This document shows positions 4,041 to 26,337 of a DNA stretch of 64,000 bases, in pieces. The notes beneath the pieces were generated by a model. It was not told the DNA's origin. It did not search any database and saw nothing but the letters and a program-made list of their open reading frames with translations. Positions within the stretch are counted from its first letter, which is position 1. Each line of letters begins with the position of its first letter. Source of the stretch: a virus (taxonomy: Duplodnaviria > Heunggongvirae > Uroviricota > Caudoviricetes); IMG/VR virus record IMGVR_UViG_3300013121_000010, positions 13,903 to 77,902 of that record. The stretch is one strand, 5' to 3'. The position numbers and the translations under genes are program-made.

Positions 4041-4042
4041 AA

Positions 4043-4801: not shown

Positions 4802-5115
4802 TGAGTAGTAATCAACTTAGTAGTACAGTTTTAATAAATAAAAAACCAGATGAAAAAATTCTGGTTGGAATGTCTTTTGCTAATTGGCTACAAAGTGGTG
4901 AAACTATAAGTTCTATTACTTCGGTTTCTTATAGTGCTTGTGATGGAGCAGAAGCTCTTACATTTTCTCAACAAACAATAGTCGGTACAAATGTTAATTT
5001 TTTTGTTGAGAGTGGTAGTGTAGGAATAAGATATAAAGTTATAGTAACAATAGTAACTTCTAGTGGTCAAACATTAATTGGCGATGGACCATTGAATGTA
5101 GTACCAGGAGAATAA
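4801..5115 (+). CDS. Putative fibre-tail adaptor-like small structural protein
   Basis: 104 aa with pattern KxPDEK..F..WL..GETI...F..GG/SG..G.RYKV....TS.G.TL, resembling small phage fibre-adaptor proteins. TAATG coupling to the upstream gene. Confidence 0.45.
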   Translation: MSSNQLSSTVLINKKPDEKILVGMSFANWLQSGETISSITSVSYSACDGAEALTFSQQTIVGTNVNFFVESGSVGIRYKVIVTIVTSSGQTLIGDGPLNVVPGE

Positions 5116-5119
5116 CAAA

Positions 5120-5599
5120 ATGGCATGTTGGCAAGATACTATAGTTCTAACATTAAGAACTATTATTGACGATATGGGTGATTCTCCTAGGTATTCCGAT
5201 GAATCATTACAAAGTATTATATTAGTTTCTGCTTTAATTTTAACTAGAAGTATTACATTTTCAAATACTTATTCTGTAAATATAGGAACTAGAACGATAA
5301 CGCCTGACCCAGGTTCAGACAATGATTTTATCATATTATGTGCTATGAAAGCAGCTTGTCAAATATCAATGGCTGATACTAGAAAGAAAGCGGAAAGAAG
5401 TATGGTTGTAAAAGATGGACCGTCCAATATTGATACTAGACCATCGGCAGATGCTACTAGTAAATGGTCTGATAGAGTTTGCTCTGATTTTAATAAGGCG
5501 GAAGTTCAGTTCAGAATTGGTAATGGAACGCTTGGTAGAGCAATAATTGGTCCTTATAGAGTTTATTCTGCTATGAGTCAACCAAATAATTTTTCATAG
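5120..5599 (+). CDS. Putative head-tail adaptor/connector protein
   Basis: 159 aa, helical N-terminus (LRTIIDD...RYSDESLQ), first gene of the neck block before the tail tube. Confidence 0.45.
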   Translation: MACWQDTIVLTLRTIIDDMGDSPRYSDESLQSIILVSALILTRSITFSNTYSVNIGTRTITPDPGSDNDFIILCAMKAACQISMADTRKKAERSMVVKDGPSNIDTRPSADATSKWSDRVCSDFNKAEVQFRIGNGTLGRAIIGPYRVYSAMSQPNNFS

Positions 5600-5608
5600 G
5601 TGTAATTT

Positions 5609-6124
5609 ATGGCAGATATATTTAGAATTAATGAAAGTTTACCAGTGAGAGTTTCTGGTGTTACAATTGGTTATATACCAGGAGCAGGATTTTCTATAAA
5701 TAGAGAAAATGTAAAAACTGTAGAAAGTGAAGTTATTATGAGTAATTTAATTACTGATAGGCTTCAAGAGAATTTAGATGTATTTTCACCAGGAAAAACA
5801 GTTGTTAGAGTAGATTCTGATAGAACAATCTATGCTTATGAAAGCGGAACAACGTTTCTAGCTCATGCTGCTGCACAATTTACATTGCCATCACCAAACA
5901 CTACTGGCATTAACTTTACATTTTTACAAAAAGCTGATGCTACTATGCGAATACTTGGTAGCTCTAATATAATACATAAAGGAAATAGTGGAGCGTCATC
6001 TATAAGTTTTCAAACAGCTTCTCAAAAATTAGGTTCATCTTTACATGTAATTTCTTTAGAAGCGGAAGGTATGATATATTGGTATGCTTTTAACCTTGGT
6101 GGTACTACAGCAACAGTCTCATAA
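5609..6124 (+). CDS. Hypothetical minor structural protein
   Basis: Contains FTLPSP..G..FTF, a motif type common in small phage decoration/fibre proteins; context. Confidence 0.45.
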   Translation: MADIFRINESLPVRVSGVTIGYIPGAGFSINRENVKTVESEVIMSNLITDRLQENLDVFSPGKTVVRVDSDRTIYAYESGTTFLAHAAAQFTLPSPNTTGINFTFLQKADATMRILGSSNIIHKGNSGASSISFQTASQKLGSSLHVISLEAEGMIYWYAFNLGGTTATVS

Positions 6125-6129
6125 TAAAA

Positions 6130-6687
6130 ATGTCTAATAAAATTCCAGAAAGAGGGGACTTCTCAATACCCTCTGAAATAATAGATGAACACGAATGGAT
6201 ATCAGACTGGTTCATTGATGGCGATTTTGGTAGTAATTGTAAAATATACTATCCGCCAACAGATAGTGAATGTCCAAACTGTTTATTTGACCCACAAACA
6301 GGATTATCAGCAAATATTTACAAAGCTGGTGGTCCAATAAGTTTTCCTAATAATACAACTTGTCCTTGGTGTAATGGAGAAGGTAGAAAAACAGAGCGTT
6401 CTACAGATGATATTAGATTAAGAGTTTATTGGGGAAGTGATGGTGAATTTACATCGTCTAAACAATTTAACCAATATATTAAAAAGTCAGGATTTGATAA
6501 TCCAGAAGGTGATGTATTTATAATAGGTTATATGTCAGATGTACAAAAATTTATGCGTAGTGATTATATGATATTGTATAATACTTCATCACCAATAGAA
6601 TATAAATGTAATAGAGTTTCAGAACCTAAACCTTGGGGATTTCGTAGAAATAGGTACTTTTCTGCGTTCTTAAAAAGAAATGGCTAA
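6130..6687 (+). CDS. Putative head-closure/neck protein with CxxC...CxxC
   Basis: ECPNC and TCPWC motifs, C-terminal PWGF; position in the neck block. Confidence 0.45.
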   Translation: MSNKIPERGDFSIPSEIIDEHEWISDWFIDGDFGSNCKIYYPPTDSECPNCLFDPQTGLSANIYKAGGPISFPNNTTCPWCNGEGRKTERSTDDIRLRVYWGSDGEFTSSKQFNQYIKKSGFDNPEGDVFIIGYMSDVQKFMRSDYMILYNTSSPIEYKCNRVSEPKPWGFRRNRYFSAFLKRNG

Positions 6688-7348
6688 ATTTAAAATTGGT
6701 TTACAACTTGTAACAACACCAATAGATATTAAAAGAGCTATATTGAAAGAAATAGAAGTAGTTCTTAATAAGGCCGCTTTAATAACTGAAAAAATTGTAT
6801 ACACAAAAGCTCTAAACATTTTTATTTATTCTTTAGAAAATTGTCCTGAAATAAAAAGTTTAAAAGGCGGTTTATTGCAAGCTGAATTAGGCCCTATCAA
6901 AACAGATGTAGATATTATAATTAAAAATATAATAAATGAAATTGTAAGTACTTTTGAATTTAAAGTTGATTATTATAATTCAGTTTATGTTAGACCAAAA
7001 TTACAAATAACTATGAGTGTTTTTCCTTATAATTCCATAACAAAATTAATTAATGATATTGGAGCATCGTATAAAACAGATAAGAGTGTAAATATACCTT
7101 GGTTAGAGTGGTTGCTTTTAAGAGGTGATGTTCCAATAATATCAAATTATTATGTTTCAACATCTGGAAATTTATTAAATTCAAGAACTGGTTTAGCTGT
7201 AATGAAAAGAAGTAAAACATCTGCATGGAGAGTACCGCCTCAATTTTCAGGTGTAGAAAAAAATAACTTTATTACGAGAGCTTTAGATAATGTAGCTGAT
7301 AATGTAGTTGATATTCTCATAGAAACTTTTATTAAAAATGTCCAATAA
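6680..7348 (+). CDS. Putative neck/tail-completion protein
   Basis: Position between head-closure-like and terminator-like genes; IPWLEWLL motif. Function inferred from synteny only. Confidence 0.4.
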   Translation: MAKFKIGLQLVTTPIDIKRAILKEIEVVLNKAALITEKIVYTKALNIFIYSLENCPEIKSLKGGLLQAELGPIKTDVDIIIKNIINEIVSTFEFKVDYYNSVYVRPKLQITMSVFPYNSITKLINDIGASYKTDKSVNIPWLEWLLLRGDVPIISNYYVSTSGNLLNSRTGLAVMKRSKTSAWRVPPQFSGVEKNNFITRALDNVADNVVDILIETFIKNVQ

Positions 7349-8303
7349 TAATTACTTAAAATTAAATGGAAATCCTAGTAGTGTCAATCAAGATACAGCA
7401 AGTGAAAATATGCTGTACTCTATTATTGATTACTATAAATGGGCATTCTTAGAAATAGGTGCATATCAAAATATAAGTCGTTCACCAGCAGTTTCAGGCG
7501 TATTTGGTGGACAAAAATTTAGACTTGGTTATGTTGATGACCCTAGATTTACTACTGGTACTGTATGGCAAGGTTATAAAGGTGAGTGGGTTTGGGAAAG
7601 CGGAGTTTCATTTAACCCTCAACCTACAGGTGTTACAGTCTGGTTAAACTCTGTTCAAGTTCCAGCTAGTTCTTACTATGTTGATTATCCAAGAGGGCGA
7701 GTTGTATTTACAACGCCATCACCTACTGGTTCTACTGTAGAAGCTAATTTTTCTCATAGAACAGTTTCATTTGTAAAAACAGAAGAACCTTGGTTTAGAG
7801 AATTAATGTATAATTCTAACAATGTTAATAAACAAGAATTTTTAAATTCATTAAGTGGCGGTTCATGGAATAAACTTGGTGAAACACGAACAGAATTACC
7901 TGTGGTTGGTGTAGAAATTGTTGGTACATCTTCATACAAACCATATCAACTTGGCGGTGGGCAATGGCAATATGTAGATATACTATATTATATTTATACT
8001 GAGGATAGTTCAACTCGTAATAGATTAAGAGATTTAATATCAAATCAAAATGATAAAGTTATATGGTTATATAACAGAGATTTGATGAAGCAAGATTCAA
8101 AATGGCCTTTCACACTTGATTATAGAGGTTCGCCGATACAAGGATACTGGACATACCCATCACTTGTTGCTGAATATAATAATTATCGCTATTTAAATGC
8201 TAGATTTATTGATTCATATTCAACAAATATAGAAACTGGGAACAAATGGTTATATGGAGCGGTTGTAAGAACAAAAGCTGAAATTATAAATCCTTACGGA
8301 TAA
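7338..8303 (+). CDS. Putative tail terminator-like protein
   Basis: LPVVGVEIV...PYQLGGG...DILYYIYTED...RNRLRDLI; immediately upstream of the tail tube gene. Confidence 0.45.
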   Translation: MSNNNYLKLNGNPSSVNQDTASENMLYSIIDYYKWAFLEIGAYQNISRSPAVSGVFGGQKFRLGYVDDPRFTTGTVWQGYKGEWVWESGVSFNPQPTGVTVWLNSVQVPASSYYVDYPRGRVVFTTPSPTGSTVEANFSHRTVSFVKTEEPWFRELMYNSNNVNKQEFLNSLSGGSWNKLGETRTELPVVGVEIVGTSSYKPYQLGGGQWQYVDILYYIYTEDSSTRNRLRDLISNQNDKVIWLYNRDLMKQDSKWPFTLDYRGSPIQGYWTYPSLVAEYNNYRYLNARFIDSYSTNIETGNKWLYGAVVRTKAEIINPYG

Positions 8304-8339
8304 TCAAAAAGTGTAAAACATTATAGCGGAGAAAATTAA

Positions 8340-9458
8340 ATGGCTAATAATCGTATATTTTATGCATGTCAAAAAGGTGGTATTGCTCCATTAGGAAGCA
8401 ACACATACACTACTATTCGTGGTTTGCAATCTATTGCTATGACCACAAACTTTAACTTAGAAGCTTTCTTTGAAATTGGTAAATTAGAAATTTATCAACA
8501 AGTAGAAGGTATTCCAGATGTAACTTTAGATATGGAAAAGTTACTTGATGGTTATGCTCCAATCTATACATTAGCAACTCAACAAGGAACATCTGCAAGT
8601 TTGGTTGGTCGTTCAAATGCACGTTGTTCAGCCGCAGTTTCTATATATGCAGATACGGTAGAAAAAGCAGAAGGAAATGCAACATCAGAAGTTCAATTGT
8701 CTGGTTTGTATATTAGTTCTGTAAGTTATAATGTTGCTGTAGGTGAACGTGCTAGAGAAACAGTTGGTTTCGTTGGTAATAACAAAGTTTGGGTAAATGT
8801 AATTGCTGGAACATCTTTTGCTACTTATGGTGATGGTAATGTATTCACAAATAACGCAAATCCAAAAGCTATAAGTGGTTCTGGTGGTGTTAATGGTTAC
8901 GAATCTGTATTATTCTCATATAGCGGAACTGGTGTTGATGCTAATGGTTCAGTATCAGGAAATGGAACTGTATTACCACAAGATATTCCAGGTATATCAA
9001 GTTCTGGTACAAATGATACTTTATCTGGTGGTGCTAAAGCTGCACACCCACAATCCTTCTCTGCTTCTGTAGATTTAAGTCGTGAAGATTTGTTTGAACT
9101 TGGTCGTCGTGGTCCATACCATAAGTTTTCTAACTTCCCAACAGAAGTAACAACAGAAATTAGAGTTATCTCTTCATCTGGTGATATGGTAAGCATGAAA
9201 GAAGATGGTATTATTTCTGGTGGTGGATGTAATGTTGGTACAAACCTATATGACAGAACTATCAGATTACACATGTGCGAAGGTTTGCAACTAGACCTTG
9301 GTAAGAAAAACAAGCTACGTTCTGTAAATGTAAGTGGTGGTGATGCTACAGGTGGTAATGTTGAAGTTACATATACCTATGTCAACAACAATGATTTTAG
9401 TGTATTCCACCCATCTGACCCAAGCAGAGCAGTTTCAGGTTTCTCACCAGCATTTTAA
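8340..9458 (+). CDS. Major tail tube protein (372 aa)
   Basis: GLQSIAMTTNFNLEAFFEIGKLEIY and QSFSASVDLSREDLFELG tube-like beta motifs; GGAG RBS-like sequence upstream; followed by a terminator hairpin, chaperone-like genes and the tape measure. Confidence 0.65.
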   Translation: MANNRIFYACQKGGIAPLGSNTYTTIRGLQSIAMTTNFNLEAFFEIGKLEIYQQVEGIPDVTLDMEKLLDGYAPIYTLATQQGTSASLVGRSNARCSAAVSIYADTVEKAEGNATSEVQLSGLYISSVSYNVAVGERARETVGFVGNNKVWVNVIAGTSFATYGDGNVFTNNANPKAISGSGGVNGYESVLFSYSGTGVDANGSVSGNGTVLPQDIPGISSSGTNDTLSGGAKAAHPQSFSASVDLSREDLFELGRRGPYHKFSNFPTEVTTEIRVISSSGDMVSMKEDGIISGGGCNVGTNLYDRTIRLHMCEGLQLDLGKKNKLRSVNVSGGDATGGNVEVTYTYVNNNDFSVFHPSDPSRAVSGFSPAF

Positions 9459-9487
9459 TAATTAAAACTTAAAAAAAGGAAAAATAA

Positions 9488-9526
9488 AGAGGGTAAGAGT
9501 TTACAATACTCTACCCTCTATTTATT
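9488..9526 (+). terminator. Hairpin after tail tube gene (terminator/attenuator-like)
   Basis: AGAGGGTAAGAGT-ttacaat-ACTCTACCCTCT inverted repeat with a 1-nt bulge, followed by ATTTATT and the next ATG at 9527. Confidence 0.65.
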
Positions 9527-10588
9527 ATGGAACTTGATTATTTAGAAAAAGATAGGCTTGTTAATCAAATTCTTTCAGGTTCTATACTGATAGATTTAGA
9601 AGATTATTTCTTATTTGTAAAAGAACCTAGCCCAGAACAAAAATTAATAGCTGATAATATCTATAAAAAACAGCTTATAAATGCCGAATTAAATGATATC
9701 TGGACATTACCAGAAATGTTTGAAGAGAAAAAGCGTTTGGGTATGTGGTCAGACGCCGACCAAAAAGAAATTGACGATTTTCCTAAAAGGTTAGAGGCAT
9801 TGAAGATAGAGCTATACCAAGCTTACTTTCAGTACAAGAGAAGGGACGGTATTAAAAAAGCGTTGGAAGAACTTAGGCTTCGTGACAGTATAGTAAATCA
9901 GAAGCTTGATACATGGAAGCACACAACTACAGAAGGTTACGCTCTCTCTTGTAAAATACAATATCTTATAAGCGTAAGTACATTTACAGAAAATAACACT
10001 CTATTCTTCTCTTCTGCTAATATCAATCAGTCTTTACTTGATGAAGTACTATACCAATACACTCACTCTAGAATGGATGAGAAAACTCTAAGGTATTTAG
10101 CAAGGAATGAACCTTGGCGTAGTATATATTCTGCTGGTAAAGCTCAAGGTGGAATAAGATTGAATGATTCTTCCTTGCTTACATTTGAACAACGTTCTAT
10201 TCTGTTGTGGTCTAAAATGTATGATTCACTATATGAAAGAGGGAGTGAATGTCCACCAGAAGAAGTAATAGAAGATGATGACTGTTTAGACGGTTGGATG
10301 GTTCTTGAACATAGAAAAATTGAAAAAGAACGTAAATCTAATAGTGGTTATAATCCTGGAAGTAAGTATAATAAAGCAGATGAAGTATTCATTCCGGTTG
10401 ATAATGTAGAGGATATTAATAGAGTTAATCAAATGAATAGTCCTGCCGCATTAATTAGAAAACAACAAAGAATGAATGCTTTAAGTAACGCGGGTGGAAA
10501 ATTAGAAGATAAGTACATGCCTGATTCACAACAAAAGATTAGAGAATTAATAATGAAGGAAGTAAGTAATCATGGAAATAAAAAATAA
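9527..10588 (+). CDS. Putative tail assembly chaperone, long paralog (353 aa)
   Basis: Lies between tube and tape measure; N-terminal part resembles 10942..11736. Confidence 0.5.
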   Translation: MELDYLEKDRLVNQILSGSILIDLEDYFLFVKEPSPEQKLIADNIYKKQLINAELNDIWTLPEMFEEKKRLGMWSDADQKEIDDFPKRLEALKIELYQAYFQYKRRDGIKKALEELRLRDSIVNQKLDTWKHTTTEGYALSCKIQYLISVSTFTENNTLFFSSANINQSLLDEVLYQYTHSRMDEKTLRYLARNEPWRSIYSAGKAQGGIRLNDSSLLTFEQRSILLWSKMYDSLYERGSECPPEEVIEDDDCLDGWMVLEHRKIEKERKSNSGYNPGSKYNKADEVFIPVDNVEDINRVNQMNSPAALIRKQQRMNALSNAGGKLEDKYMPDSQQKIRELIMKEVSNHGNKK

Positions 10589-10949
10589 ACCTTTAAGTGA
10601 TTATGTAAAAGCATCGTTAAATAAAGAAAAGTCGGAAGCAAAGGAGAAGGAAATATGTGAAAATTCAAAAAAACAACTTGTTGATATGTTGGAAAAGAGA
10701 TTAAAAACAACGTTTATAGGAGCTATATCTTCTTTTGAAAATGCTTTTGGTTATATGTGGGGCCATAATAAGAAAAACACAGATAGAAATGAGCATGAGA
10801 AGGATATGTATAATTTATGGATGCAAACAAGAAACGAAATACTTAATAAATCAAACGTTCAATCAAGAGCTATAATTGAAGATTTAAGAAATTACACTGT
10901 TAAATTTAATATGTACAAGATTGTTATGAGGACTAAAGAAAATGAGTAA
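10572..10949 (+). CDS. Hypothetical protein (125 aa)
   Basis: Helical ORF overlapping both neighbours; KTTFIGAISSFE..FG.MWG motif. Confidence 0.55.
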   Translation: MEIKNKPLSDYVKASLNKEKSEAKEKEICENSKKQLVDMLEKRLKTTFIGAISSFENAFGYMWGHNKKNTDRNEHEKDMYNLWMQTRNEILNKSNVQSRAIIEDLRNYTVKFNMYKIVMRTKENE

Positions 10950-11736
10950 TAACAAAGATTTTGCTGTTAATGGTAAAGAATATATTGTAAAACAACCAAC
11001 ATCTAAAGAACATAAGGAAGCTCAGCTATTTTATAATCAAACTTTTGGTGATGCTATAAAATCTAAAGCTCCTTTAAGAGCTACTCTTAATCAATATATG
11101 AAAGACCAAGGTTTATGGTCTGATGAAAAAGCAAAGACATTTTTAGAATTAGTAGAGTTTGTATCAACATCAGAAAAGAAATTAGATGCTGGTGGATTTA
11201 AATATAAAGAAGCCTTAGCTTTGGCTAAAGAATTAAAAACTAAAAGACTTGAATTACAGGCAATGTTGTCAGATAGGGGTTACTCAGATTCTAATACGGC
11301 AGAAGGACAAGCTGAAAATGCTAAATTCCAAAAACTTTTAGTCTTATGTTTGGTGTATAAAGAAGATGGAAAGCCTGTTTTTCCATCAACTGATTCCCTG
11401 CTGAATGAAACAGACGAAACAAAGTTGAATGTAGCCTCTGAGGGTTTTAAATTATTAGGTGAAATGCTTTATAATTTAGACTCAAGCTATGAACATAAAC
11501 TAGCTGAGAATAAATTTTTTAAGAAGTTTAAGTTAGTAGATGATAAACTACGTTTTATTAACAGTAAAGGCGAGTTGGTGGATGAACAAGGCAGACGCAT
11601 AGATGAAGAAGGTTTTCTTATAAATGAGAAAAATGAAAGAATAAATGCTAGTGGCGACAAGATTGATAGTGAAGGTAATCTTGTTGTAGAACAAGCACCA
11701 TTTTTAGACGATGATGGTAATCCTATTGTCGTTTAA
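10942..11736 (+). CDS. Putative tail assembly chaperone, short paralog (264 aa)
   Basis: Directly upstream of the tape measure; charged and helical, with C-terminal acidic (V/I)DExG repeats. Confidence 0.55.
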   Translation: MSNNKDFAVNGKEYIVKQPTSKEHKEAQLFYNQTFGDAIKSKAPLRATLNQYMKDQGLWSDEKAKTFLELVEFVSTSEKKLDAGGFKYKEALALAKELKTKRLELQAMLSDRGYSDSNTAEGQAENAKFQKLLVLCLVYKEDGKPVFPSTDSLLNETDETKLNVASEGFKLLGEMLYNLDSSYEHKLAENKFFKKFKLVDDKLRFINSKGELVDEQGRRIDEEGFLINEKNERINASGDKIDSEGNLVVEQAPFLDDDGNPIVV

Positions 11737-11824: not shown

Positions 11825-14800
11825 ATGCCTCAAAATTTTAATATAGTAGCAAAACTAACAATACAAGGTCCAAACAATATTAATGCTGTTGTTAGGCAGG
11901 TTCAATCACAGCTTAACACTTTAAAAGCTAATGTAAATCTTGGTATTAACACTCAATCTCTAACAAATCTTAGAAATGCTAATAAGTCAATAGGAGCGTT
12001 GACTATAAGCATGAGAGATTTAAGGGATGCTACTAGATTAACAAAAATTTCTGTAGACGCTTTAGCTACCTCATTGAATAATTTAGGCAAGCAAGTAGCA
12101 CCTTTGCAAAAAGCCGCACAAATAATAAAAAACGTACAAACACAAACAAAGCAAGCAGCAAATGATATGGAAGTTTTCGGTGAAGAAGCTGCTTTTGCTT
12201 TGAGAAGATTTGCCGCCTTTGCTATTCCAACTGCTGTTTTCGCTGCTATTAGCGTTGCTTTTAAACAAGCTATTCAGAACGCTATTGATTTTGAAGTAGA
12301 AATGGTAAAGCTTTCTCAGGTTACTGGTAGAAGCGTTACTGCTCTTAGTGATATTTCAAATGAAATTACTAGACTATCTACTAAATTAGGCGTTTCAAGT
12401 AAAGACATAAGCGAAGTTGCCGTTACTTTAGCACAGGCTGGTTTATCAGCTAAAGATACTAAGATTGCTCTAGAAGCATTAGCTCGTTCTGCATTAGCTG
12501 CTACATTTGATAATGTAAAGGATACTACAGAAGGTGCTATTGCTGCTATGGCACAGTTTAAATTAGAAGCTAGTGATTTACAAGGTTTGATTGGTAGTTT
12601 AAACGCTGTATCCGCTCAATTTGCTGTTGAAAGTGAGGACTTGGTTAGCGTTATTCGTCGTTCAGGTGGTGCATTTCAATCTGCTGGTGGTAATCTTAAT
12701 GAATTATTAGGCTTGTTTACATCTGTTCGTGCTACTACAAGAGAAAGTGCTGATAGCATTGCTACAGGTTTCCGTACAATATTTACTCGTATTCAAAGAC
12801 CTAGAACAATTCAATTTTTAAGAGAATTGGGCGTTGAATTACAAGATGCTAAAGGACAATTTATCGGGCCTCTTGAATCCATTCGTAGATTGAACGCTGC
12901 CTTATCAGAAATTCAAACTACAGACCCTAGATTCGCAGCAGTAATTGAAGAACTTGGTGGTTTCCGTCAAGTTTCTAAAGTAATTCCTTTAATTCAACAA
13001 TTCCCAGAAGCTATTAAAGCTATTAATGTTGCTCAACAAGGTCAAATTTCTATTATAGAAGATTCTGAAATAGCACAAAAATCACTTGCGAATCAATTAA
13101 CTAAACTACGCGAAGAATTCTTTGCTTTATTTAGAGAAATAGGCGGTGATAAGTCATTCCAAGAATTTGTCAAAACTTTAATTGATATTTCTAGAAACTT
13201 AATTGAAGTAACAAAAGCTATTAAACCTTTAATTCCTTTAATTGGTTCAATCGCTTTATTTCAAGGTGGTAGTAAAGCCGCTCAATTTTTCTCAGGTTTT
13301 TCTAGAGGTTTAACAACAACAAACCCACGCAGAAGATTTGCTAGAGGTGGTGTTGTTCCTGGTCGCGGTGATACAGATAGTGTAAACGCTGCTTTAATGC
13401 CTGGGGAATTTGTTATTCGTAAAGATGCTGCGGAAGCTATTGGTTATGATAGATTGGCAGAAATGAATAGATTTGCTAAAGGTGGTCCAGTAATAAATCT
13501 AAGTAAAAAACAATTGGAAGCATATTCTTTTGCTGATGATTTTGATGTAAAAGAAGTAAATGAAAAAGGTAAAAATGTTAGATTTCAAAGAAAAGAATTG
13601 TTTGGAAAATATGCATCGGAAGAAACCAGAAAACCTATTAGATTTGGTTTAGCTGCATTATCTAATGATTCTCAAGTTGGTACATTTGATAGTTTCGTTA
13701 GTGTTAAATCAAAAAGGAACGGTGCTTTTGGTTTTCCAGTAAGTGTTGAAGCTGCTAAATTACAACCAGAAAGTCTTTCATCTGATGTTGAAAATCGTAT
13801 GGTTAAAACTCTTTCAGCGTTAACTTCAAATGTTGCTGGTGCATTAGCAAGAAGTATAGGTGGAACAGCTAAGGAAAAAGATAAAGGTAGAGTAGAAAAG
13901 ATATTAAAGAAAGCTAATTTAGATAGTGCTATTGGTGGTATTTTTGAAGCCTCTCTTGGTGTTTTAGGGGCACCTTATGAAGATAAAGAATCTAATAACC
14001 AAGCTATTGACTTTCCAAAAGGTTTAGGAATTGATACATCTAAGCTATTTGGTAATCCTAACCTTAAAAATTTGCCTACTGATGCTAAAAGAACTGGTAA
14101 GGTTTCTAGTTTTATTAGTAAAAATTTAAAAACTGTATTCACAGATATAGTAGATAATATTGGTTTTGGTATTGCTAGACCATCTAAACAAGGCAAAGAT
14201 GTTAGTGTTAAATCTAATGATTTACCTTCTATTTTACCAGATAAAAATAAAGCTTTTACTGATGCTGTAAATCAAGTTAGATTATTAAAACAAAATGCAA
14301 CTGGTGAAAAAGTATCAATTAATAGTGTTTTCACTAAATATTTTAAAGATTTTGGAATAACAAATAAATTTCAACAAATAGACGCTCGCAAAGAATTAGC
14401 TAACGAGCTTGTAAAAGCTGGTGTTATTGATAAATCAGAATTAAATAGTAAGCAAGTAAGAAGAAATTCCGGTGGTTCTATTCCTGGTGTTGGTAACAGT
14501 GATACGGTTCCCGCTCTATTGACCCCAGGTGAGTTCGTAATTAATAAAAGTGCTGCGAATGCCATAGGATTGTCAAATTTACACAAATTAAATAAATATA
14601 ATAGTGGTGGCCCAGTAAGACATTATAGAACTGGTGCTAGAGCCGCAGGTGGATTTTCTACAGCAGGAAGTTTATTTGGTGGTGGTTTAGCTGGTGGTAC
14701 TATCTTACCTATATTACTTGGCCAATTAGGTCAATTAAATGATTCAACCTCAGCATTAATAAGTAAATTTAGTGCGTTAGCTATTGGCGTTAGTGCTTTT

Positions 14801-17800
14801 CAATTCCAAATAAATGCTGTAACTGATGATAGAAAATTGCGTATACTTAGTAGTCTTAGTGAAAGAAGCGGTGGTACTTTACAAAAAGCAACTGGAATTG
14901 CCGCTCGTAACTTTCAAGCTATAAGTTTAGCTGCTGGTTTAGCCGCTACTGGTCTTTCTGAATATGGAAGCTATTTAAAAACACAAGCTAATGAACTTGC
15001 TTCTAAAGCAAAAACTGAAAAAGAATTACAGGGTGCTATATCACAGGATACTAGTGGTAGTATATTTGGTGGTGCTGGTGTAGGTGCTGGTATTGGTGCC
15101 GCTATAGGTACTGTTATCGCTCCTGGTATTGGTACTGCAATTGGTGCTGGTGTAGGTGCCCTTACAGGAGCTATTGTTGGTAGCTATAATACTCAAACAG
15201 AAGAATTAAGGAAAGTTTTTGAGCAAGCTAGATTTGACAGAACTGCCGAACAATTAGATGAAGTTATAACTAATTTTAGAGAAGGTAGATTTGCTAATGC
15301 TCAAGTTGGTGCTTCTAAAGTGGCAAATTTTGCTGAACAACAAAGATTGAATATAGAGAATTCTTCTGTTAAGAATGTACCGGAGTTACGCAAGCAATTA
15401 AGAAATAATTTAGTAAACTTTCGTGATGCGGCTACAGAATTAGCTAAAAATTCTACTAATTTTGAAGATTTTGAAAAATCTTTTGGTGGCTCTGGAAAGA
15501 AACTTACAGATGCTATAGTCAGTATTACTGGTGATTTTGAACAATTTAAAACAGAAATTGAAGGAACTATTAATGCTTCTAAAATAGCAGCAAAAGTTCG
15601 TCAACAAGAATTAGAATCTGCGAATAAGATAAAGGAATATACCACAAGTTTATCTGAATTTAATCGTGCTATAACAGAACTTACAAATACAGTTCAAAAA
15701 AACAATGATGCATTTTCATTCATTTCTGGATTATCAGAAGGTGTTCCTTCAATAAAGATAGGTTCAGGTAATGATATTTTTAGTAGAGCCGCTTCTGGTA
15801 AAGTAACAAATACAAACGAAGTAAAAGAAGCTTTAGATAGATTAATTGGTGGTACTTTAGATGATAAGTCTCAAGAATCCATAAGTAATAATGTATTAAG
15901 CGTAACAAAACTAACAGCAAATCTTCCTGCTATTCTTGAAAGAGTAGCTTCAAAAGTTGGTTTTGGCGATAGTGATGTTGGTGCTTTAGATTTATTCAAA
16001 GCAGAATTAAATCAAGTTGCAGGTTTAGATTATAAGCTAAAACAAACAATCTCATTATTATTTGATAGTCAATTAAGTTCGCGTCAAAATACCGGACCTG
16101 CTGGATTAGCTCAAGTTGTAAGAGAAGATGTTCTTGCTTTAGCTGATAAATTAGTGCCAGAAGCAATAACTGCTGGTGTTAAAGAATTGGATTCTAGCTA
16201 TAAACAATTAAGTGAAACTTATACTCAAATTATTGATAGAATAAAAACTGTTATAGATGCTGAAAGTAAGTTAGCTCAAAGTAGAGCAGATATAATTCAA
16301 CGTGAATTTGAATTTAGTGAGCAAGCTAGACCAGCTAATAGTTTGCAAGCTAATTTTAGACAAGTTCAAGATATACAAAATAGAAGATTGACAGCTATTA
16401 CTGGAAATAGAAATACTACTGTTAGTGGTGCTACACAAGGTCTAATATCAAAGAATATAGAGCTTAAATTAATAGAAGATAAATTACAAAATGCACAATT
16501 TGGTTCTGATGAACAAAAAGCTCTAATAAATCAGTTTAATGATACTGCTGCTGCTGCTGGCAAACTTAGGTCTTTCTTAAATGAAGTGGCTCAATCAACT
16601 TTATTATTAAATAAAGCACAACAAGAACTTGCGGACGCTACAGCACAGCGTGAAGAAAGAGTTGGGTTTGTTCAAAAGTTATTATTTGCAGAAGGAAAAG
16701 AAAGACGTAATTTTGTTAAGACTGCTGTATTAGCTCAGGGTTTTGCTAGTGGTGCCCCTGGTGGTTTTGATGCCATCAAAGGAAAGGATGCTAAAGATGT
16801 ATTTGACCTTTTTGGTTCTTTAGGTAAAAATAAGTTATTTGGAACTCAAAGAACAGGCGAAGATTTACAATTAGAATTAACAAGAGAATTATTAAAAAGA
16901 GAAGCTGGTCCTAATGCCGACCCAAGATTTGTTGATGCGGCAGTTAAACAACTTATAGATGAAAGTAGAGCGGAACAAGTTGCTAGAGAAAATTTAGAAA
17001 AAGTACAACAGGAAGCCTTAGCTGCTCAGAGAGGTTTGATTGAAGTACAAGAAAGAAATACAAAAGCTCTTGAAGCTCTTAATGTTAATTTATTAAGTCA
17101 GTTACCACAAAAATTAAATGAGGCTTTAAATAGAAGTGCGGCGGCTACTTTAGAAAGTCAAATTTCAATAAGTAAAAATGAAAAGATTGGACTTGAAAGT
17201 GAAAAAGAAAAAATAGTTTCACTAAGACAAAGTAGGGTAGGGCAAGCTTTTGGTGGTAAAATACCTCAGGCTGTTGCTAATATTGATACTGTTAATACAA
17301 TTAGAAAAAATTATGATTTATTAAAAGCTGCTAAAAATGAAAGTTTTAAACTTAGAAGTAATAAAGAAGATAATAGAATACTTGAACTTTCTTCAAGAGT
17401 AAATGGTAGAAACTTACTTCCTGAAGATTATAAGAATGTGCCAGATAAATATAAAGATAAAGATTTTTTTGGTTTTCAATTCATAAAAAAAGATTTACTT
17501 GATGCTGATGTACAAGAAATTTTAGCAAGAAGAAAAGAAGTTGAGTCAAAACAAAAATCTATTAAAGAAGAAATAGATACTAATAAACAAAGTTTAAGAA
17601 ATGTTGGTGTTAATATAGATTATTTATTAACTATTCCTAAAGATGAACTTAAAACTTTCCAAGATAACTTAGGAAGTATTTCAGAAGAAGCTCGTAGGAA
17701 TATTAGTGCTTTTGACTCTTTAACAACTAAAATACAAAATCTAGATAAACTTATTGGTGATTTAAATAAGCAATTGGGTAGCATTCAAAAACCAAATGAA

Positions 17801-19003
17801 GCAGCTAATAGAGCTTACGGTGGTTTTGTTGGTAGTAAAGGTGGTATTTCTTCACCATTAGTTCGTTTTGCTCCAAAAGGTACAGATACAATACCAACAA
17901 TGCTAACAAAGGGCGAGTTTGTTGTTAATGCAAAAGACGCTGCTAAGAACAAAGATTTGTTAGAACAAATTAACGCTGGTTATATGGCAAACGGCGGTCC
18001 TGTCAGAAAAACTAGAGCGGAAATCTTACAAGAAAGACGCCAAGCTTATCTAGCTAGAAAACAAGCTCTTGCTGATGCCGCTCAAAAAAGGAGAGATGCT
18101 TATTCTAATAGATTGAGTGATAAGCAAAGAACTATAAGGAATAATAGAGAAGCTAGTTTAATTGGTATAGCAAACAGAGCATTTAATAATGAAGATAAAT
18201 CAAAAAATCAAGAAGTCTTGCAAAAATACAAAGCTTATATTCAAGCTGGTCTTAGCGATGATGAAATTAGAATAAGAGAAGGCGGTTCAATAACTAATGG
18301 TCCTATTAGTGGTAAAAGATTACAGCAAGAAAGATTGGCAAACATAAAAGCTCAAGGCATTGCTAATTTAAAGTTTGGAAAGGACAATTCCACTGTAAAT
18401 GCTAATATACCTAATAAACCATTTAGATATAGTATCGGAGAGTTTGATTATTTGAAAAAATTTGGTTTTAGTGAAAGACAAATTGGTTTGCTAAAAACTC
18501 AAGCTGAAATATATGATTTACAAAAGGGTGGAGAAGAAATATCTCGTAAAGTAGAAGAAATTATAAAAGGCTCAAAAGAAGGTAAATTCCTAAAGTTTGC
18601 AACTGGCGGTGTTGTTCCTGGTTCAGGAAACCGCGATACTGTCCCAGCATTACTAACTCCTGGTGAAAGAGTAATAACTAAGCAGCAAAATAAGCAAGGT
18701 TTGCCGGTTTCACTTAGCTCAGAAAGTGTATCTGTTCTCTCTGCTTTTTCAAACAGTGTTGGAAGTATGTCTGAAAGTATGAGTATGTTTACAGAGGGTG
18801 CTAATAAATTAAGTGAAGCATTAACAGGGTTCTTAAATACTAAAATTGAAGTTACACATTCTCCAATAACTGTATCTGTTAATATTGCAGGTATGGAAGG
18901 ATTGGAACAAGCTATACAGGATAAGATTATGTCAGCGGTAAATTCATCTATTGCTAGCTCTAAAGCTAAAGCATCAGAAGGCCGCTCACCATTCTTTACT
19001 TAA
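11825..19003 (+). CDS. Tail tape measure protein (TP901-type core domain; 2392 aa)
   Basis: AIDFEVEMVKLSQVTG, LAQAGLSA, SLNAVSAQFAV, ATTRESADSIATGFRTIF core; Ala/Leu-rich helical body; Gly-zipper hydrophobic segment; located after tube and chaperones. Confidence 0.92.
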   Translation: MPQNFNIVAKLTIQGPNNINAVVRQVQSQLNTLKANVNLGINTQSLTNLRNANKSIGALTISMRDLRDATRLTKISVDALATSLNNLGKQVAPLQKAAQIIKNVQTQTKQAANDMEVFGEEAAFALRRFAAFAIPTAVFAAISVAFKQAIQNAIDFEVEMVKLSQVTGRSVTALSDISNEITRLSTKLGVSSKDISEVAVTLAQAGLSAKDTKIALEALARSALAATFDNVKDTTEGAIAAMAQFKLEASDLQGLIGSLNAVSAQFAVESEDLVSVIRRSGGAFQSAGGNLNELLGLFTSVRATTRESADSIATGFRTIFTRIQRPRTIQFLRELGVELQDAKGQFIGPLESIRRLNAALSEIQTTDPRFAAVIEELGGFRQVSKVIPLIQQFPEAIKAINVAQQGQISIIEDSEIAQKSLANQLTKLREEFFALFREIGGDKSFQEFVKTLIDISRNLIEVTKAIKPLIPLIGSIALFQGGSKAAQFFSGFSRGLTTTNPRRRFARGGVVPGRGDTDSVNAALMPGEFVIRKDAAEAIGYDRLAEMNRFAKGGPVINLSKKQLEAYSFADDFDVKEVNEKGKNVRFQRKELFGKYASEETRKPIRFGLAALSNDSQVGTFDSFVSVKSKRNGAFGFPVSVEAAKLQPESLSSDVENRMVKTLSALTSNVAGALARSIGGTAKEKDKGRVEKILKKANLDSAIGGIFEASLGVLGAPYEDKESNNQAIDFPKGLGIDTSKLFGNPNLKNLPTDAKRTGKVSSFISKNLKTVFTDIVDNIGFGIARPSKQGKDVSVKSNDLPSILPDKNKAFTDAVNQVRLLKQNATGEKVSINSVFTKYFKDFGITNKFQQIDARKELANELVKAGVIDKSELNSKQVRRNSGGSIPGVGNSDTVPALLTPGEFVINKSAANAIGLSNLHKLNKYNSGGPVRHYRTGARAAGGFSTAGSLFGGGLAGGTILPILLGQLGQLNDSTSALISKFSALAIGVSAFQFQINAVTDDRKLRILSSLSERSGGTLQKATGIAARNFQAISLAAGLAATGLSEYGSYLKTQANELASKAKTEKELQGAISQDTSGSIFGGAGVGAGIGAAIGTVIAPGIGTAIGAGVGALTGAIVGSYNTQTEELRKVFEQARFDRTAEQLDEVITNFREGRFANAQVGASKVANFAEQQRLNIENSSVKNVPELRKQLRNNLVNFRDAATELAKNSTNFEDFEKSFGGSGKKLTDAIVSITGDFEQFKTEIEGTINASKIAAKVRQQELESANKIKEYTTSLSEFNRAITELTNTVQKNNDAFSFISGLSEGVPSIKIGSGNDIFSRAASGKVTNTNEVKEALDRLIGGTLDDKSQESISNNVLSVTKLTANLPAILERVASKVGFGDSDVGALDLFKAELNQVAGLDYKLKQTISLLFDSQLSSRQNTGPAGLAQVVREDVLALADKLVPEAITAGVKELDSSYKQLSETYTQIIDRIKTVIDAESKLAQSRADIIQREFEFSEQARPANSLQANFRQVQDIQNRRLTAITGNRNTTVSGATQGLISKNIELKLIEDKLQNAQFGSDEQKALINQFNDTAAAAGKLRSFLNEVAQSTLLLNKAQQELADATAQREERVGFVQKLLFAEGKERRNFVKTAVLAQGFASGAPGGFDAIKGKDAKDVFDLFGSLGKNKLFGTQRTGEDLQLELTRELLKREAGPNADPRFVDAAVKQLIDESRAEQVARENLEKVQQEALAAQRGLIEVQERNTKALEALNVNLLSQLPQKLNEALNRSAAATLESQISISKNEKIGLESEKEKIVSLRQSRVGQAFGGKIPQAVANIDTVNTIRKNYDLLKAAKNESFKLRSNKEDNRILELSSRVNGRNLLPEDYKNVPDKYKDKDFFGFQFIKKDLLDADVQEILARRKEVESKQKSIKEEIDTNKQSLRNVGVNIDYLLTIPKDELKTFQDNLGSISEEARRNISAFDSLTTKIQNLDKLIGDLNKQLGSIQKPNEAANRAYGGFVGSKGGISSPLVRFAPKGTDTIPTMLTKGEFVVNAKDAAKNKDLLEQINAGYMANGGPVRKTRAEILQERRQAYLARKQALADAAQKRRDAYSNRLSDKQRTIRNNREASLIGIANRAFNNEDKSKNQEVLQKYKAYIQAGLSDDEIRIREGGSITNGPISGKRLQQERLANIKAQGIANLKFGKDNSTVNANIPNKPFRYSIGEFDYLKKFGFSERQIGLLKTQAEIYDLQKGGEEISRKVEEIIKGSKEGKFLKFATGGVVPGSGNRDTVPALLTPGERVITKQQNKQGLPVSLSSESVSVLSAFSNSVGSMSESMSMFTEGANKLSEALTGFLNTKIEVTHSPITVSVNIAGMEGLEQAIQDKIMSAVNSSIASSKAKASEGRSPFFT
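13337..18680 (+). repeat. Four dispersed copies of a (F/Y)AxGG..PG.G..D.VPA.L.PGEFV motif inside the tape measure
   Basis: Copies at about 13337-13490, 14464-14617, 17811-18004 and 18591-18680, read directly from the translation. Confidence 0.85.
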
Positions 19004-19010
19004 ATTAAAT

Positions 19011-21308
19011 ATGACAACATCATCTAAATCAATAGGTTGTTTTATATCAGGTTCAGTAAGAACTGTTGAATATCCTTTTGAAGTAGAAACTTCTGATAGT
19101 TTTTATAATTCTGGTTCTCAGCTTTTAGATACTACGGATTTAGACCCAACATCAGAAGTCGGTAATGAATATACTTGGAAAACATGTAATATATTTAGTC
19201 AGGATTCTAATTATTACGCTTTACAAAAAGTTTATTCTACAGAACCAAGCGGATATACATCTTTAATAGAAATACCGGTAAACAAAAGAAATTATGTAGA
19301 ACAATACCTATATATTAGTCAATATTATGGCGATTACAATGTCAAGAGTGGTTTAATTTGTAGAACTAAACCTATTGGCAGTAGTGGTCAAGCTCATGGC
19401 GGTTGGTTGTTTTGCATAGATAATGGTGAAACTAGATTATATAGAAAATCTAATGAAAATGATGTAAATTCAGATTGGGATGTTTTAGAAGCTTCTGGTA
19501 TTAATATATTAAATTATGTTGCTGCTGTAAATCAATATGGAAGTGTTGCCGCTACTTATAGAACTGTAGTTTCTGGCGAAACTCTACAATTTTATTATGA
19601 TTCTCAACATCCTAGTGGTGGTACAAACTTATTATTGATAGAACATCAATCAAATAGATATACATCTGATGAATATAATGGTTATGGTTTTTATTCAAAA
19701 GATGGAAAGTTATTAGATTTTCCAGAAACTAATGATATAAGTTTTTATCAATATATAATGACTGCGGCTAAAGACACTGAATACTGGACTGGTCATAATC
19801 CGCCTAGTGGAATGCCTCTTTATATAGATGGTATAGGAACAGAAGCTTCCGGTGTAGATTTATATATTAAAGGTTTACCTCAAGGATACTGCCAGTATAC
19901 TCCACATGAATGGTCTATTTATACAAGTGATAGTTTTGACCGTGGAGAAGATTTAACAGATTTAGGCCAAACCAATCTTGTCCCAACAATGGATGTTGGT
20001 ACTATGAAAGATTGGAAGTCTAGTAATATGAATATAAGTGGTGGTGGTTATTATGTTAGTCAAAGAGAACAAAACTTATCTACACCAAACCCAACTGGTC
20101 ATGTTGCTTTTATAGAAGGTAATGGTAATTATGATTATCAAGATGTTAGTGTTTATTTAAATCCATATTATTATTACGAAACAAATAATAGAGCTGGTGT
20201 AATTTTAAGAGCTAATGCTTCTGGAGAATTTGGACATTCTAGAAATGGAATTTTATTTTGTTTAGATAATGGTGTTGCTAAACTATATAAAAGAGATAAT
20301 GATGATGATTTTAATGCTCCATTTAATACATTAGTTGATGAAGGAACAGATGTTTTAAATACTTATGGTAGTGGTCCAGGTTCATATTTATACGGAACTT
20401 TAAGAGCGGTAGCTTCTGGTGAGTATATAAAGGGGTATTGGAATGATGATGTTATCTTAGAACATATTGATGAAACCTTATATCGTTCTTCTTCTAATGA
20501 TGATATGGGTTTCTATATTGATGATAAATATTATCCTGACAGTCAAATATATATTGATGATTTTAAGTGTAGCTCTGCAAATGCTGAAAGTTATGTTTAT
20601 TGCAGTAATTCAGGAATTCCACTTTACACGCAAAGTTTACCTGATTATGGTAGTGGGCAAATGCCTTTATTTACATTATCTAAAGGCACCGCCTCACAAT
20701 TAAGAACTTTATATATTAAGAATGCTATGGCTGGTAGTGGTCAAATACCATTATATACAATTGGCCATATACCTTCTAATACTGGAATTCCACTTTATAC
20801 TATTTCTATAGGTGATGCTAGTGGTCAAATTCCACTATATATGGTAGGTCATATACCTTCTAATACAGGAATACCACTATATATTGAAGGTATGATTAGG
20901 TCAAGCGGTCTTATGCCTCTTTATACTATTAATAATCCTACAACATCTAATATAGCTCTATATATTCATTATTTAGCAGAACCAATGGGCGGTTCCACTA
21001 TTCCGTTATACTTATACAATTCAGGAAGTACAAAAAGTCAAGATTTGGTTGTTTGGGGGCGTTCTCTTAATGATAATTCAACAAACAATGCGATTCCGGT
21101 AGATTCAACTATTGCTTTATTTACTGGTGGTGACGGTGTATATAATAGTGTTCCTTTATATTTAATTTGTGGAACAGGAGAATTAAATAATTCACAATAT
21201 TTATACATTAATAGTTTAGATTCTTCAAATAATTCAATTCCATTATTTATGCCTTCTGGTGTAATTGAAGAAAGTAAAAACTTAAAACTGTATACTCATG
21301 GATTCTAA
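19011..21308 (+). CDS. Tail-associated protein with duplicated beta-domain and C-terminal IPLY repeats (about 765 aa)
   Basis: ATG at 19011 follows the tape measure stop at 19003 and is preferred over 18951. Internal duplication (GWLFCIDNGETRLYRK versus GILFCLDNGVAKLYKR) and IPLY repeats. Confidence 0.65.
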   Translation: MTTSSKSIGCFISGSVRTVEYPFEVETSDSFYNSGSQLLDTTDLDPTSEVGNEYTWKTCNIFSQDSNYYALQKVYSTEPSGYTSLIEIPVNKRNYVEQYLYISQYYGDYNVKSGLICRTKPIGSSGQAHGGWLFCIDNGETRLYRKSNENDVNSDWDVLEASGINILNYVAAVNQYGSVAATYRTVVSGETLQFYYDSQHPSGGTNLLLIEHQSNRYTSDEYNGYGFYSKDGKLLDFPETNDISFYQYIMTAAKDTEYWTGHNPPSGMPLYIDGIGTEASGVDLYIKGLPQGYCQYTPHEWSIYTSDSFDRGEDLTDLGQTNLVPTMDVGTMKDWKSSNMNISGGGYYVSQREQNLSTPNPTGHVAFIEGNGNYDYQDVSVYLNPYYYYETNNRAGVILRANASGEFGHSRNGILFCLDNGVAKLYKRDNDDDFNAPFNTLVDEGTDVLNTYGSGPGSYLYGTLRAVASGEYIKGYWNDDVILEHIDETLYRSSSNDDMGFYIDDKYYPDSQIYIDDFKCSSANAESYVYCSNSGIPLYTQSLPDYGSGQMPLFTLSKGTASQLRTLYIKNAMAGSGQIPLYTIGHIPSNTGIPLYTISIGDASGQIPLYMVGHIPSNTGIPLYIEGMIRSSGLMPLYTINNPTTSNIALYIHYLAEPMGGSTIPLYLYNSGSTKSQDLVVWGRSLNDNSTNNAIPVDSTIALFTGGDGVYNSVPLYLICGTGELNNSQYLYINSLDSSNNSIPLFMPSGVIEESKNLKLYTHGF
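20613..21305 (+). repeat. About 14-aa (I/M)PL(Y/F) repeats, including a recent 84-bp tandem duplication
   Basis: SGQIPLYTIGHIPSNTGIPLY and SGQIPLYMVGHIPSNTGIPLY start at 20736 and 20820 (84-bp offset) with high nucleotide similarity. Confidence 0.8.
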
Positions 21309-21313
21309 ATAAT

Positions 21314-22858
21314 ATGCCAGTACAATATGATAGTAAAAAAATAATACCTGCACCATTTGCTAGTATAGAAAAAACCTATATTAGGTCTGGTGATACTAAT
21401 AAAGTAGGTTCTACATTTACAATTACATTAACTGGTAGAATAGTTACTTGTGGTGGTTCCCCTAATTCTGTTGGTGAATTTTTCAGTGATTCTGGTTATC
21501 CAGATTCTTCATTCCAAGATGATTCTACAGATGGTCAATTATTGACGGTAGAACAAAGACAGGCATTTTTACAAAGAAAAACTCAAGCTATTAGACATTT
21601 GTTTTCTAATGATGGTAAAAGTTTTGAATTACAACCTTTTGACGGCTCAGCACCTATTAAGTGTTACCCAAGAGTTAATTCAATTTCTTTTCAGGAAGGT
21701 GTTTGGGTAGATTATATACCATATACTATTGTTTTGGAAGCTGATGAGTTGTACGGTATTAATAATGAATTTATAAAAGATGCGGAAGATTTTAATTCTG
21801 AACAAGATTTCTTTAAAGACGCAGACGGAGTTAAATTATATCTTACAGAAGCAAACGAAAGTTGGCAGTTGGAAACTGTAGACGGCGAGCCTGAAAACCT
21901 AGATAATTTATATACTTATAGATTAACTCATAATATAAGTGCTACTGGTAGAAAAGTGTATAATGACGGCGGTTTAATTAGTGCTGGTTGGGAACAAGCT
22001 AAAAGGTGGGTTAAGACTAGACTTGGTATTGATAATGTTTTTGTTAATGATACTATAGCTTTAAAATTAACAAGTAAAACTGGTTATAATCATGTAAGAA
22101 CAGAAAACACTGATGAATTAACTGGTCAATATTCGGTAACAGAAACTTGGATTATAGCGTCTGGAAATTGCAGAGAAGATTTCACTGTAGACACTCAATA
22201 TTCATTAGAAAGTGGATTAACTAGAGTTGTTATTAACGGAGAAATAATTGGTTTTGATACTAAAAATAGCACAACTATGCAAATTTCAGAAACAAAATAT
22301 CAGGCTGCTTCTGTAAAATATGCAAATATATCTAGTGGTGTAACCCCAACAATATTTACTAGGGCACAAACATATTCTGGTATAACATTAAATACTCAAG
22401 TTTTGTCTACATCTGTAGGCAAAAATCCTTTGGTTGGCAGAATAAATTATAGTTTTGAATATGATAATAGGCCGTCTAATTGTATATCTAACGCTCTCAC
22501 AGAAAGTATAGTTATTACAGATAAGAACCCAACTGATATTTTTGCTAATATTCCTGTTATAGGAAGAACTAATGGTCCAGTATTGCAGGATATGGGTACA
22601 ACAACAGAAAGAACAAGAACTGTAAATATAGATGTGAATGTTTTACCAGTATCAATATGCCCAACAAATAAAACCTTAGTGGCTTCATTAATGAGTGCTT
22701 CGCCAGCTAGTGAAGTAGAAAATATTATTAATGCTTTTGAAGATGATTTAGAAGATAATTATGAAAAGGTTTTTCGTTCAGAAGATAATCCAAGTTGGAC
22801 ACCAAAAACAGGAAGATATTCTAGAACTGTGACATGGACATTTGGGAGTTGTAATTAA
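21314..22858 (+). CDS. Putative distal tail/hub protein (514 aa)
   Basis: Beta-rich, T/S-rich ORF in the tail-tip position downstream of the tape measure. Confidence 0.5.
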   Translation: MPVQYDSKKIIPAPFASIEKTYIRSGDTNKVGSTFTITLTGRIVTCGGSPNSVGEFFSDSGYPDSSFQDDSTDGQLLTVEQRQAFLQRKTQAIRHLFSNDGKSFELQPFDGSAPIKCYPRVNSISFQEGVWVDYIPYTIVLEADELYGINNEFIKDAEDFNSEQDFFKDADGVKLYLTEANESWQLETVDGEPENLDNLYTYRLTHNISATGRKVYNDGGLISAGWEQAKRWVKTRLGIDNVFVNDTIALKLTSKTGYNHVRTENTDELTGQYSVTETWIIASGNCREDFTVDTQYSLESGLTRVVINGEIIGFDTKNSTTMQISETKYQAASVKYANISSGVTPTIFTRAQTYSGITLNTQVLSTSVGKNPLVGRINYSFEYDNRPSNCISNALTESIVITDKNPTDIFANIPVIGRTNGPVLQDMGTTTERTRTVNIDVNVLPVSICPTNKTLVASLMSASPASEVENIINAFEDDLEDNYEKVFRSEDNPSWTPKTGRYSRTVTWTFGSCN

Positions 22859-22860
22859 TA

Positions 22861-26328: not shown

Positions 26329-26337
26329 AGGTTAAAA

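Follow-up and report, generated by a model that had tools for sequence, protein, structure and literature searches.

The 64,000-nucleotide stretch of Caudoviricetes DNA analyzed in this study (the window; positions 13,903 to 77,902 of IMG/VR virus record IMGVR_UViG_3300013121_000010) encodes a phage tail tape measure protein (TMP) of 2392 amino acids (aa), and between the first two of its four lambda gpH-like motif modules (M1 and M2) this protein carries a conserved domain, here termed domain X (Table 1). From the conservation of its charged residues, domain X is tentatively read, at somewhat short of even confidence, as a TMP-borne, metal-dependent hydrolase-like domain, with metal binding and catalysis predicted; nuclease or other phosphodiester chemistry is the leading guess at its function. 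Together with a divergent homologue, subfamily Y, it appears to be what the slot between the first two gpH-like modules normally holds across a very large lineage of giant TP901-type TMPs from uncultured phages.

Conservation of the Domain X Signature

The segment under study comprises aa 556–879 (in frame, window 13490–14461), for which a first-pass annotation of the same DNA had proposed a PD-(D/E)xK nuclease on the strength of short motifs. Two of these, GGIFEASL (aa 704–711, from nt 13934) and PTDAKR (aa 751–756, to nt 14092), lie where they were placed, with IDFPKG at aa 728–733, and the core signature reads G704-x-x-F-E708 ... D729-F-P-x-G-L-G ... P-T-D753-A-K755-R-T. The codons of the four charged residues, checked against the window, are at 13946–13948 (E708), 14009–14011 (D729), 14081–14083 (D753) and 14087–14089 (K755). 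Shuffled versions of the segment contain the loose pattern E..D..[DE]xK in 96% of cases; the motif alone therefore proves nothing and was rejected as evidence. The caution in the first-pass annotation that the motif could be coincidental is right for the pattern by itself, but not for the four residues, which are among the best conserved columns of the alignment.

Searched by phmmer against 1.84 billion proteins, the segment matched 105 cluster representatives with E ≤ 1e-3. Nearly all are TMPs of 2000–6300 aa in which the match falls at aa ~600–1100, and the short proteins among them are fragments running into the next M module. A profile search with domain X in a word-indexed database gave two fragments only. 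Across 111 aligned copies of X, no substitution occurs at G704, D729 or G733, and E708 is kept in 110; position 753 is Asp in 102 and Glu in 9, and position 755 is Lys in 63 and Thr in 47, the Thr variants being mostly D[AV]TRT with Arg at the following position. F730, P731, G735, F742, P751, T752 and A754 are each kept in at least 80% of the copies. The alignment includes the second X copies of three giant TMPs of up to 5555 aa (P0013, P0071, and P0075), each of which has two, and the acidic triad is near-invariant with these copies included.

Subfamily Y is a divergent homologue of X (hhalign probability 97.6%, E 4.5e-12) and the commonest alternative content of the slot. Using a hidden Markov model (HMM) for each, the X/Y superfamily was detected in 181 of 197 long TMPs (about 92%), and the suggestion that half of the relatives lack X was rejected, as most carry the divergent Y form. 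Rather than the unusual cargo envisaged in the first-pass annotation, X is near-universal in its lineage. The superfamily members are only 25–40% identical, and the three carboxylates are their most conserved polar residues: among the 181 members, G704 is kept in 180 and E708 in 179, whilst positions 729 (D 173, E 8) and 753 (D 157, E 24) are acidic in all. Conservation of the Glu and Asp residues is as the PD-(D/E)xK superfamily would require, whereas that of the Lys is partial, with Lys at position 755 in 137 members, Thr in 43 and Arg in one.

The only signature common to the most divergent members is G-x-[LIMF]-[FL]-E, h-D-h and [DE]-[AV]-K; GAPY and DFPxGLG are features of subfamilies and are lost in Y. 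A catalytic or metal site would usually show such a loss of all but the charged signature. The 16 TMPs with no detectable X/Y all retain M1, and in all but two of them (P0219 and P0228) a second module closes off a first slot whose size is normal; this retention of modules and slot argues that X may be accessory to the measurement of tail length.

One further occurrence of X is in a 202-aa protein (P0077) on a 1177-base JGI contig, which has a lipoprotein-type signal peptide (lipobox LIAGC) followed by X carrying the signature in full. This protein may be a cellular form of X that stands alone, or a chimeric assembly.

Predicted Fold of the Segment

Two AlphaFold2 (AF2) models were available, model 1 covering aa 625–800 from a 44-row alignment and model 2 covering aa 498–940 (443 residues), the latter adding the N-terminal part of X. 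The mean predicted local distance difference test (pLDDT) score is 81.7 in model 1, where ten-residue block means are ≥90 over model residues 21–130 (aa ~645–754), and 73 in model 2. In these models the segment is folded and has three beta strands along with seven helices and loops rich in Gly and Pro, which bears out the view in the first-pass annotation that it is not a helical ruler; its Ala content (8.0%) is only slightly poorer than that of the rest of the TMP (10.6%). X begins with strands at aa 605–611, 619–629 and 633–645, followed by helices at 649–677 (29 residues), 684–696 and 699–713, with E708 on the third of these (AF2/DSSP). After this come a Gly/Pro-rich coil, a one-residue bridge at F730 beside D729, and two short helices, and the domain closes with the short strand T752-D-A-K755 (four residues) and then a helix spanning 760–778. 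D729 and D753 are probably neighbors in the model, because the isolated F730 bridge in the DSSP strings most simply pairs with T752. A homotrimer prediction of aa 597–782 scored 0.19 (mark 0.42) and is evidence neither way.

Searches of Pfam, PHROGs, NCBIfam, PDB (phmmer or profile) and the ESM Atlas gave no match to the segment or to domain X, and no enzyme profile matched X in Pfam searches with the segment, with 16 members, or with 28 members at E up to 10. Foldseek against the PDB gave best E values of 2.9 and 0.28, the search with the 443-residue model having barely tested X itself, as the fold-search lists for this longer model were filled by the aa 797–879 subdomain. No nuclease, lysozyme or other enzyme was listed by Foldseek against the PDB, VIA-align wide or the second looks with either model. 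Fold matches in BFVD were to TMPs of Gordonia phages (E 4.8e-6, TM 0.17) and probably arise from the M modules. Similarly, tblastn with the flanks included matched isolated phages (Gordonia phages and Synechococcus phage S-SM2) only via M1 and M2, and X was found in no isolated phage at tblastn sensitivity (50,697 phage records). Judged from its models, X appears to be an undescribed alpha+beta domain.

The Slot Between the M Modules

The M modules follow the general pattern GG..D(S/T)VPA.LTPGEFV ... GG, which in M1 is GG..D(S/T)V.A.L.PGEFV ... GGPV; M1 forms a small hairpin and two helices in AF2 model 2. There are four such modules in this TMP and two to eight in its relatives, and the slots that they bound are variable, at 190–1785 aa. 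The order M1, X, next M module is kept in every full-length X-bearing TMP in which M1 was detected, and X lies ~300 residues upstream of a conserved glycine zipper. We take the M modules to resemble in sequence the FATGG...GEFV...GG region at the C terminus of lambda gpH. Residues 818–849 of lambda gpHC are seen bound to the hub protein gpI (PMC12617516). No enzymatic part is known in lambda gpH. The TMP described here has four copies of the module, and two of these stand on either side of a domain that is remote from the C terminus.

In several sister TMPs the same slot contains an ADP-ribosyltransferase (ART). An ART exoenzyme domain (PF03496) lies directly after M1 in P0144 (aa 526–680, E 1.6e-24), P0157 (532–687) and P0191 (538–691), whose N-terminal 418 aa are 54–55% identical to the TMP described here, and the same family was also flagged in P0159, P0160, P0193, P0214, P0215, and P0218. 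The slot after M1 can thus hold enzymes, as the ART of the sister TMPs shows, and the presence of PF03496 implies that toxin-type enzymes may be delivered as part of a TMP. The ART occupies the same slot as X but belongs to a family unrelated to it. Both P0144 and P0157 have a Y-like domain behind the ART within slot 1, and replacement of X by the ART was therefore rejected for these two; it may have occurred in P0191, P0193, and P0170, in which no X/Y was detected. A staphylococcal-type nuclease domain (PF00565) was seen in none of the 120 relatives listed. Phage T4 Alt is the textbook example of a virion-injected ART, and ART domains need cytoplasmic NAD+, a need which hints that the contents of the slot may reach the cytoplasm.

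Catalytic or Structural Role

If domain X is a metal-dependent hydrolase-like domain, E708, D729 and D753 together with K755 (or, in one subclade, T755 followed by R756) would form a center for a divalent metal, Mg2+ or Mn2+, and this center would catalyze hydrolysis of the phosphodiester or nuclease type. It has been established for lambda gpH* that the TMP fills the tail lumen, is expelled before the DNA and contributes to a conduit across the envelope (PMC12617516). As part of a TMP, X would likewise fill the lumen, leave ahead of the DNA at infection, and be exposed in the periplasm or cytoplasm, where it could act in the host envelope or cytoplasm. The role of an injected enzyme is plausible for X.

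Several observations weigh against this reading. At position 755, 24% of members have Thr for Lys. Presence in such a large share of the lineage (~92%) at a fixed position is also expected of a core structural or assembly module, and two copies of a domain in one TMP are more usual for structural modules. A cluster of acidic residues can bind a structural cation. The searches for sequence and fold relatives described above named no enzyme, the sequence of events further presumes that X leaves the tail folded and reaches a substrate, and an injected nuclease would endanger the phage's own DNA.

The main rival to a hydrolase is a non-catalytic TMP module, which might act in docking or assembly, hold the leading end of the DNA or form part of the trans-envelope conduit, its acidic residues binding a structural cation or a basic partner. 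This is a serious possibility, though the odds are judged to be against it. It would account for the near-universal presence of X (181/197), its fixed place after M1 and upstream of the glycine zipper, its duplication in three TMPs and the failure of every search to find an enzyme relative. In the models X is elongated and helix-rich with a 29-residue helix, as might suit such a module, and the flanking M modules are likened to the C-terminal piece of gpH that binds gpI. TMPs are also known to build a periplasmic channel (PMC12617516). On the other hand, it is three carboxylates and Gly/Pro loops that show the strongest conservation in X, rather than a hydrophobic surface, and the charged signature alone survives across subfamilies. 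Furthermore, the ~8% of sister TMPs that are without X/Y keep their M modules, and the slot also accepts a toxin-type enzyme, neither of which sits easily with a purely structural element.

A bolder version of the enzymatic reading is that X/Y is a new or unrecognizably derived nuclease fold, present in the TMPs of thousands of uncultured phages and injected before the genome, in some relatives alongside an ART, for host takeover or counter-defense, with the M modules fencing a general cargo slot in the TMP or serving as its processing sites. Taken as a whole this is rather improbable, though not far-fetched.

Relationship to PD-(D/E)xK Nucleases

Among its defining features, the PD-(D/E)xK superfamily has an Asp where strand 2 starts, (D/E)xK on strand 3 and often a Glu on helix 1 (PMC3424549). 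The Pro of the canonical E / (P)D / (D/E)xK signature may be any hydrophobic residue, and insertions, circular permutation and active-site residues that migrate, the Lys included, defeat sequence searches and even structure searches in this superfamily (PMC3424549). X could be a true but highly derived PD-(D/E)xK nuclease by descent that enters with the TMP and cuts nucleic acid of the host or of a competitor, which would be a special case of the metal-dependent hydrolase reading. This is considered unlikely.

The proposal in the first-pass annotation holds as far as the residues are concerned. E708, D729 and D753 correspond to the conserved acidic residues of the superfamily, and their sequence and distances (21 aa from E to D and 24 aa from D to DxK) fit the canonical layout: a helix bears G-x-x-F-E, hDh comes next, and [DE][AV]K lies on a strand (PMC3424549). 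The helix at aa 760–778 after the DxK strand would equal core helix 2, and the known tendency of insertions, permutation and residue migration to defeat searches (PMC3424549) could explain a missing match. The topology, profiles and fold searches, however, do not support it. The order in the AF2 models (three strands, three helices, coil, two short helices, strand, helix) is not that of the PD-(D/E)xK core or otherwise restriction-endonuclease-like, as the three long strands come before the helix bearing the Glu and not after it, no beta1 or real beta2 follows, and two short helices stand between D729 and D753. The region after D729 is rich in Pro, Gly and Ser in all subfamilies, which is poor material for a strand. 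Neither Foldseek nor VIA-align lists a nuclease, and a search of 28 members found no Pfam family of the PD-(D/E)xK clan even at E ≤ 10. Because of the topology, the missing strands, the Thr in place of Lys (43/181) and the lack of a match to a Pfam family of the clan, X cannot be filed as a PD-(D/E)xK member on present evidence, and the structural comparison that was to decide the matter goes largely against the original assignment.

The minimal nucleases of the superfamily (Hjc, pdb 1gef; Mrr_cat, PF04471; YraN/UPF0102, PF02021; PMC3424549) are like X in the order and spacing of the signature: a Glu that comes after G-x-x-[FL] on a helix, an Asp between hydrophobic residues, and [DE]-[AV]-K on a strand with a helix behind it, the carboxylates being fully conserved. 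X differs from them in having no profile or structure match, in having Thr for Lys in about a quarter of members, and in lying inside a 2392-aa virion protein with an N-terminal extension of three strands and two helices. PF02021 was not found in this phage's own genome.

Comparison With Muralytic Tape Measure Proteins

Domain X is without Cys and His; Zn-peptidase, CHAP and His-Me chemistries are therefore excluded, whilst that of a carboxylate glycosidase is not. A new cell-wall glycosidase with a Glu/Asp catalytic pair, helping the tail to cross the peptidoglycan, would have established precedents in TMP-embedded peptidoglycan hydrolases (TM4 TMP, PMC1796659; T5 pb2C, PMC12617516), would use carboxylate chemistry, the only kind left to a domain without Cys or His, and would fit with no other muralytic domain being recognized in this TMP or ten scanned neighbors, but it is very improbable, as X has no SLT, GH or Rpf profile match and no lysozyme-like or transglycosylase entry in the fold-search lists, and the conserved Lys/Arg that neighbors the third carboxylate is a feature found more typically with phosphate chemistry. 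Like X, the peptidoglycan-hydrolase motif of the TM4 TMP (PMC1796659) and T5 pb2/pb2C are folded, non-ruler elements presumed to act after ejection. X differs from them in its residues and probably in its chemistry, and it has no muralytic relative; it is also nearly universal in its own lineage, whereas muralytic motifs of the TM4/T5 type are sporadic.

TMPs are usually seen as rulers or channel formers, sometimes with a cell-wall hydrolase, and X adds to this an undescribed domain with an enzyme-like Glu/Asp/Asp(+Lys) center. Should the metal-dependent hydrolase reading be correct and X be catalytic, the tails of abundant environmental phages would deliver enzymes via the TMP, a route little studied outside muralytic motifs, and the flanking M modules would gain a role as slot boundaries or cleavage sites. 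Should X be structural, it would mark an unrecognized conserved step in tail assembly or DNA piloting. In either case, X is a clearly delimited target: it has ~180 residues, and four point mutants suggest themselves.

The Tape Measure Protein Gene and Its Setting

The IMG/VR virus contig from which the window comes has 148,730 bases, and its completeness is estimated at 98%. The 2392-aa protein is a TP901-type phage tail TMP, as evidenced by a match of its core to PF10145 (aa 179–379, E 2.4e-27; Pfam), by TIGR01760 (aa 139–473, E 1.2e-36, above its cut-off; NCBIfam) and by matches to several PHROG TMP families. The gene order also agrees with this, with two small open reading frames (ORFs), then the TMP gene, then large ORFs of the tail tip. 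Features of the protein are listed in Table 1.

Table 1. Position of the TMP gene in the window and of the modules, domains and linkers of its product.
Feature	Residues (aa)	Window position	Strand	Basis
TMP gene (P0001)	2392 in total	11825..19003	+	ORF list, translation; PF10145, TIGR01760, PHROG TMP families
Motif module M1	504–556	13334..13492	+	Regular expression and HMM mapping
Low-confidence linker	557–601	13493..13627	+	pLDDT 40–53 in model 2; alignment occupancy low
Domain X	602–778	13628..14158	+	AF2 models 1 and 2; homologues
Conserved core of X	699–757	13919..14095	+	Column counts in 111 copies and 181 superfamily members
Disordered linker	779–806	14159..14242	+	pLDDT 45–51 in model 2
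Three-helix, winged-helix-like subdomain	807–873	14243..14443	+	Patchy or absent in most relatives
Motif module M2	879–931	14459..14617	+	Regular expression and HMM mapping
Glycine-zipper hydrophobic segment	1080–1125	15062..15199	+	PF13488, PF13441, NF053611; kept in family consensus
Motif module M3	2015–2060	17867..18004	+	Regular expression and HMM mapping
Motif module M4	2257–2293	18593..18703	+	Regular expression and HMM mapping

Ten proteins of the structural module were scanned, six encoded upstream and four downstream of the TMP gene (≤1155 aa; window 1248–11736 and 18951–29403). No significant Pfam or PHROG match was found in these ten, the sole hit being a sub-threshold DUF2460, and the tail module around the TMP is otherwise uncharted.

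With the N-terminal region of the TMP (aa 139–556), 2525 TMPs were recovered at E ≤ 1e-10 among 8000 candidates scored. The listed relatives are 46–73% identical over this region, except for P0002, which is identical over aa 139–556. All relatives of the TMP are metagenomic and, where named, are called only "tape measure protein." Cys is absent from the whole of the 2392-aa protein, and His makes up 0.1% of its residues. The glycine zipper is the probable membrane-inserting part of the TMP.

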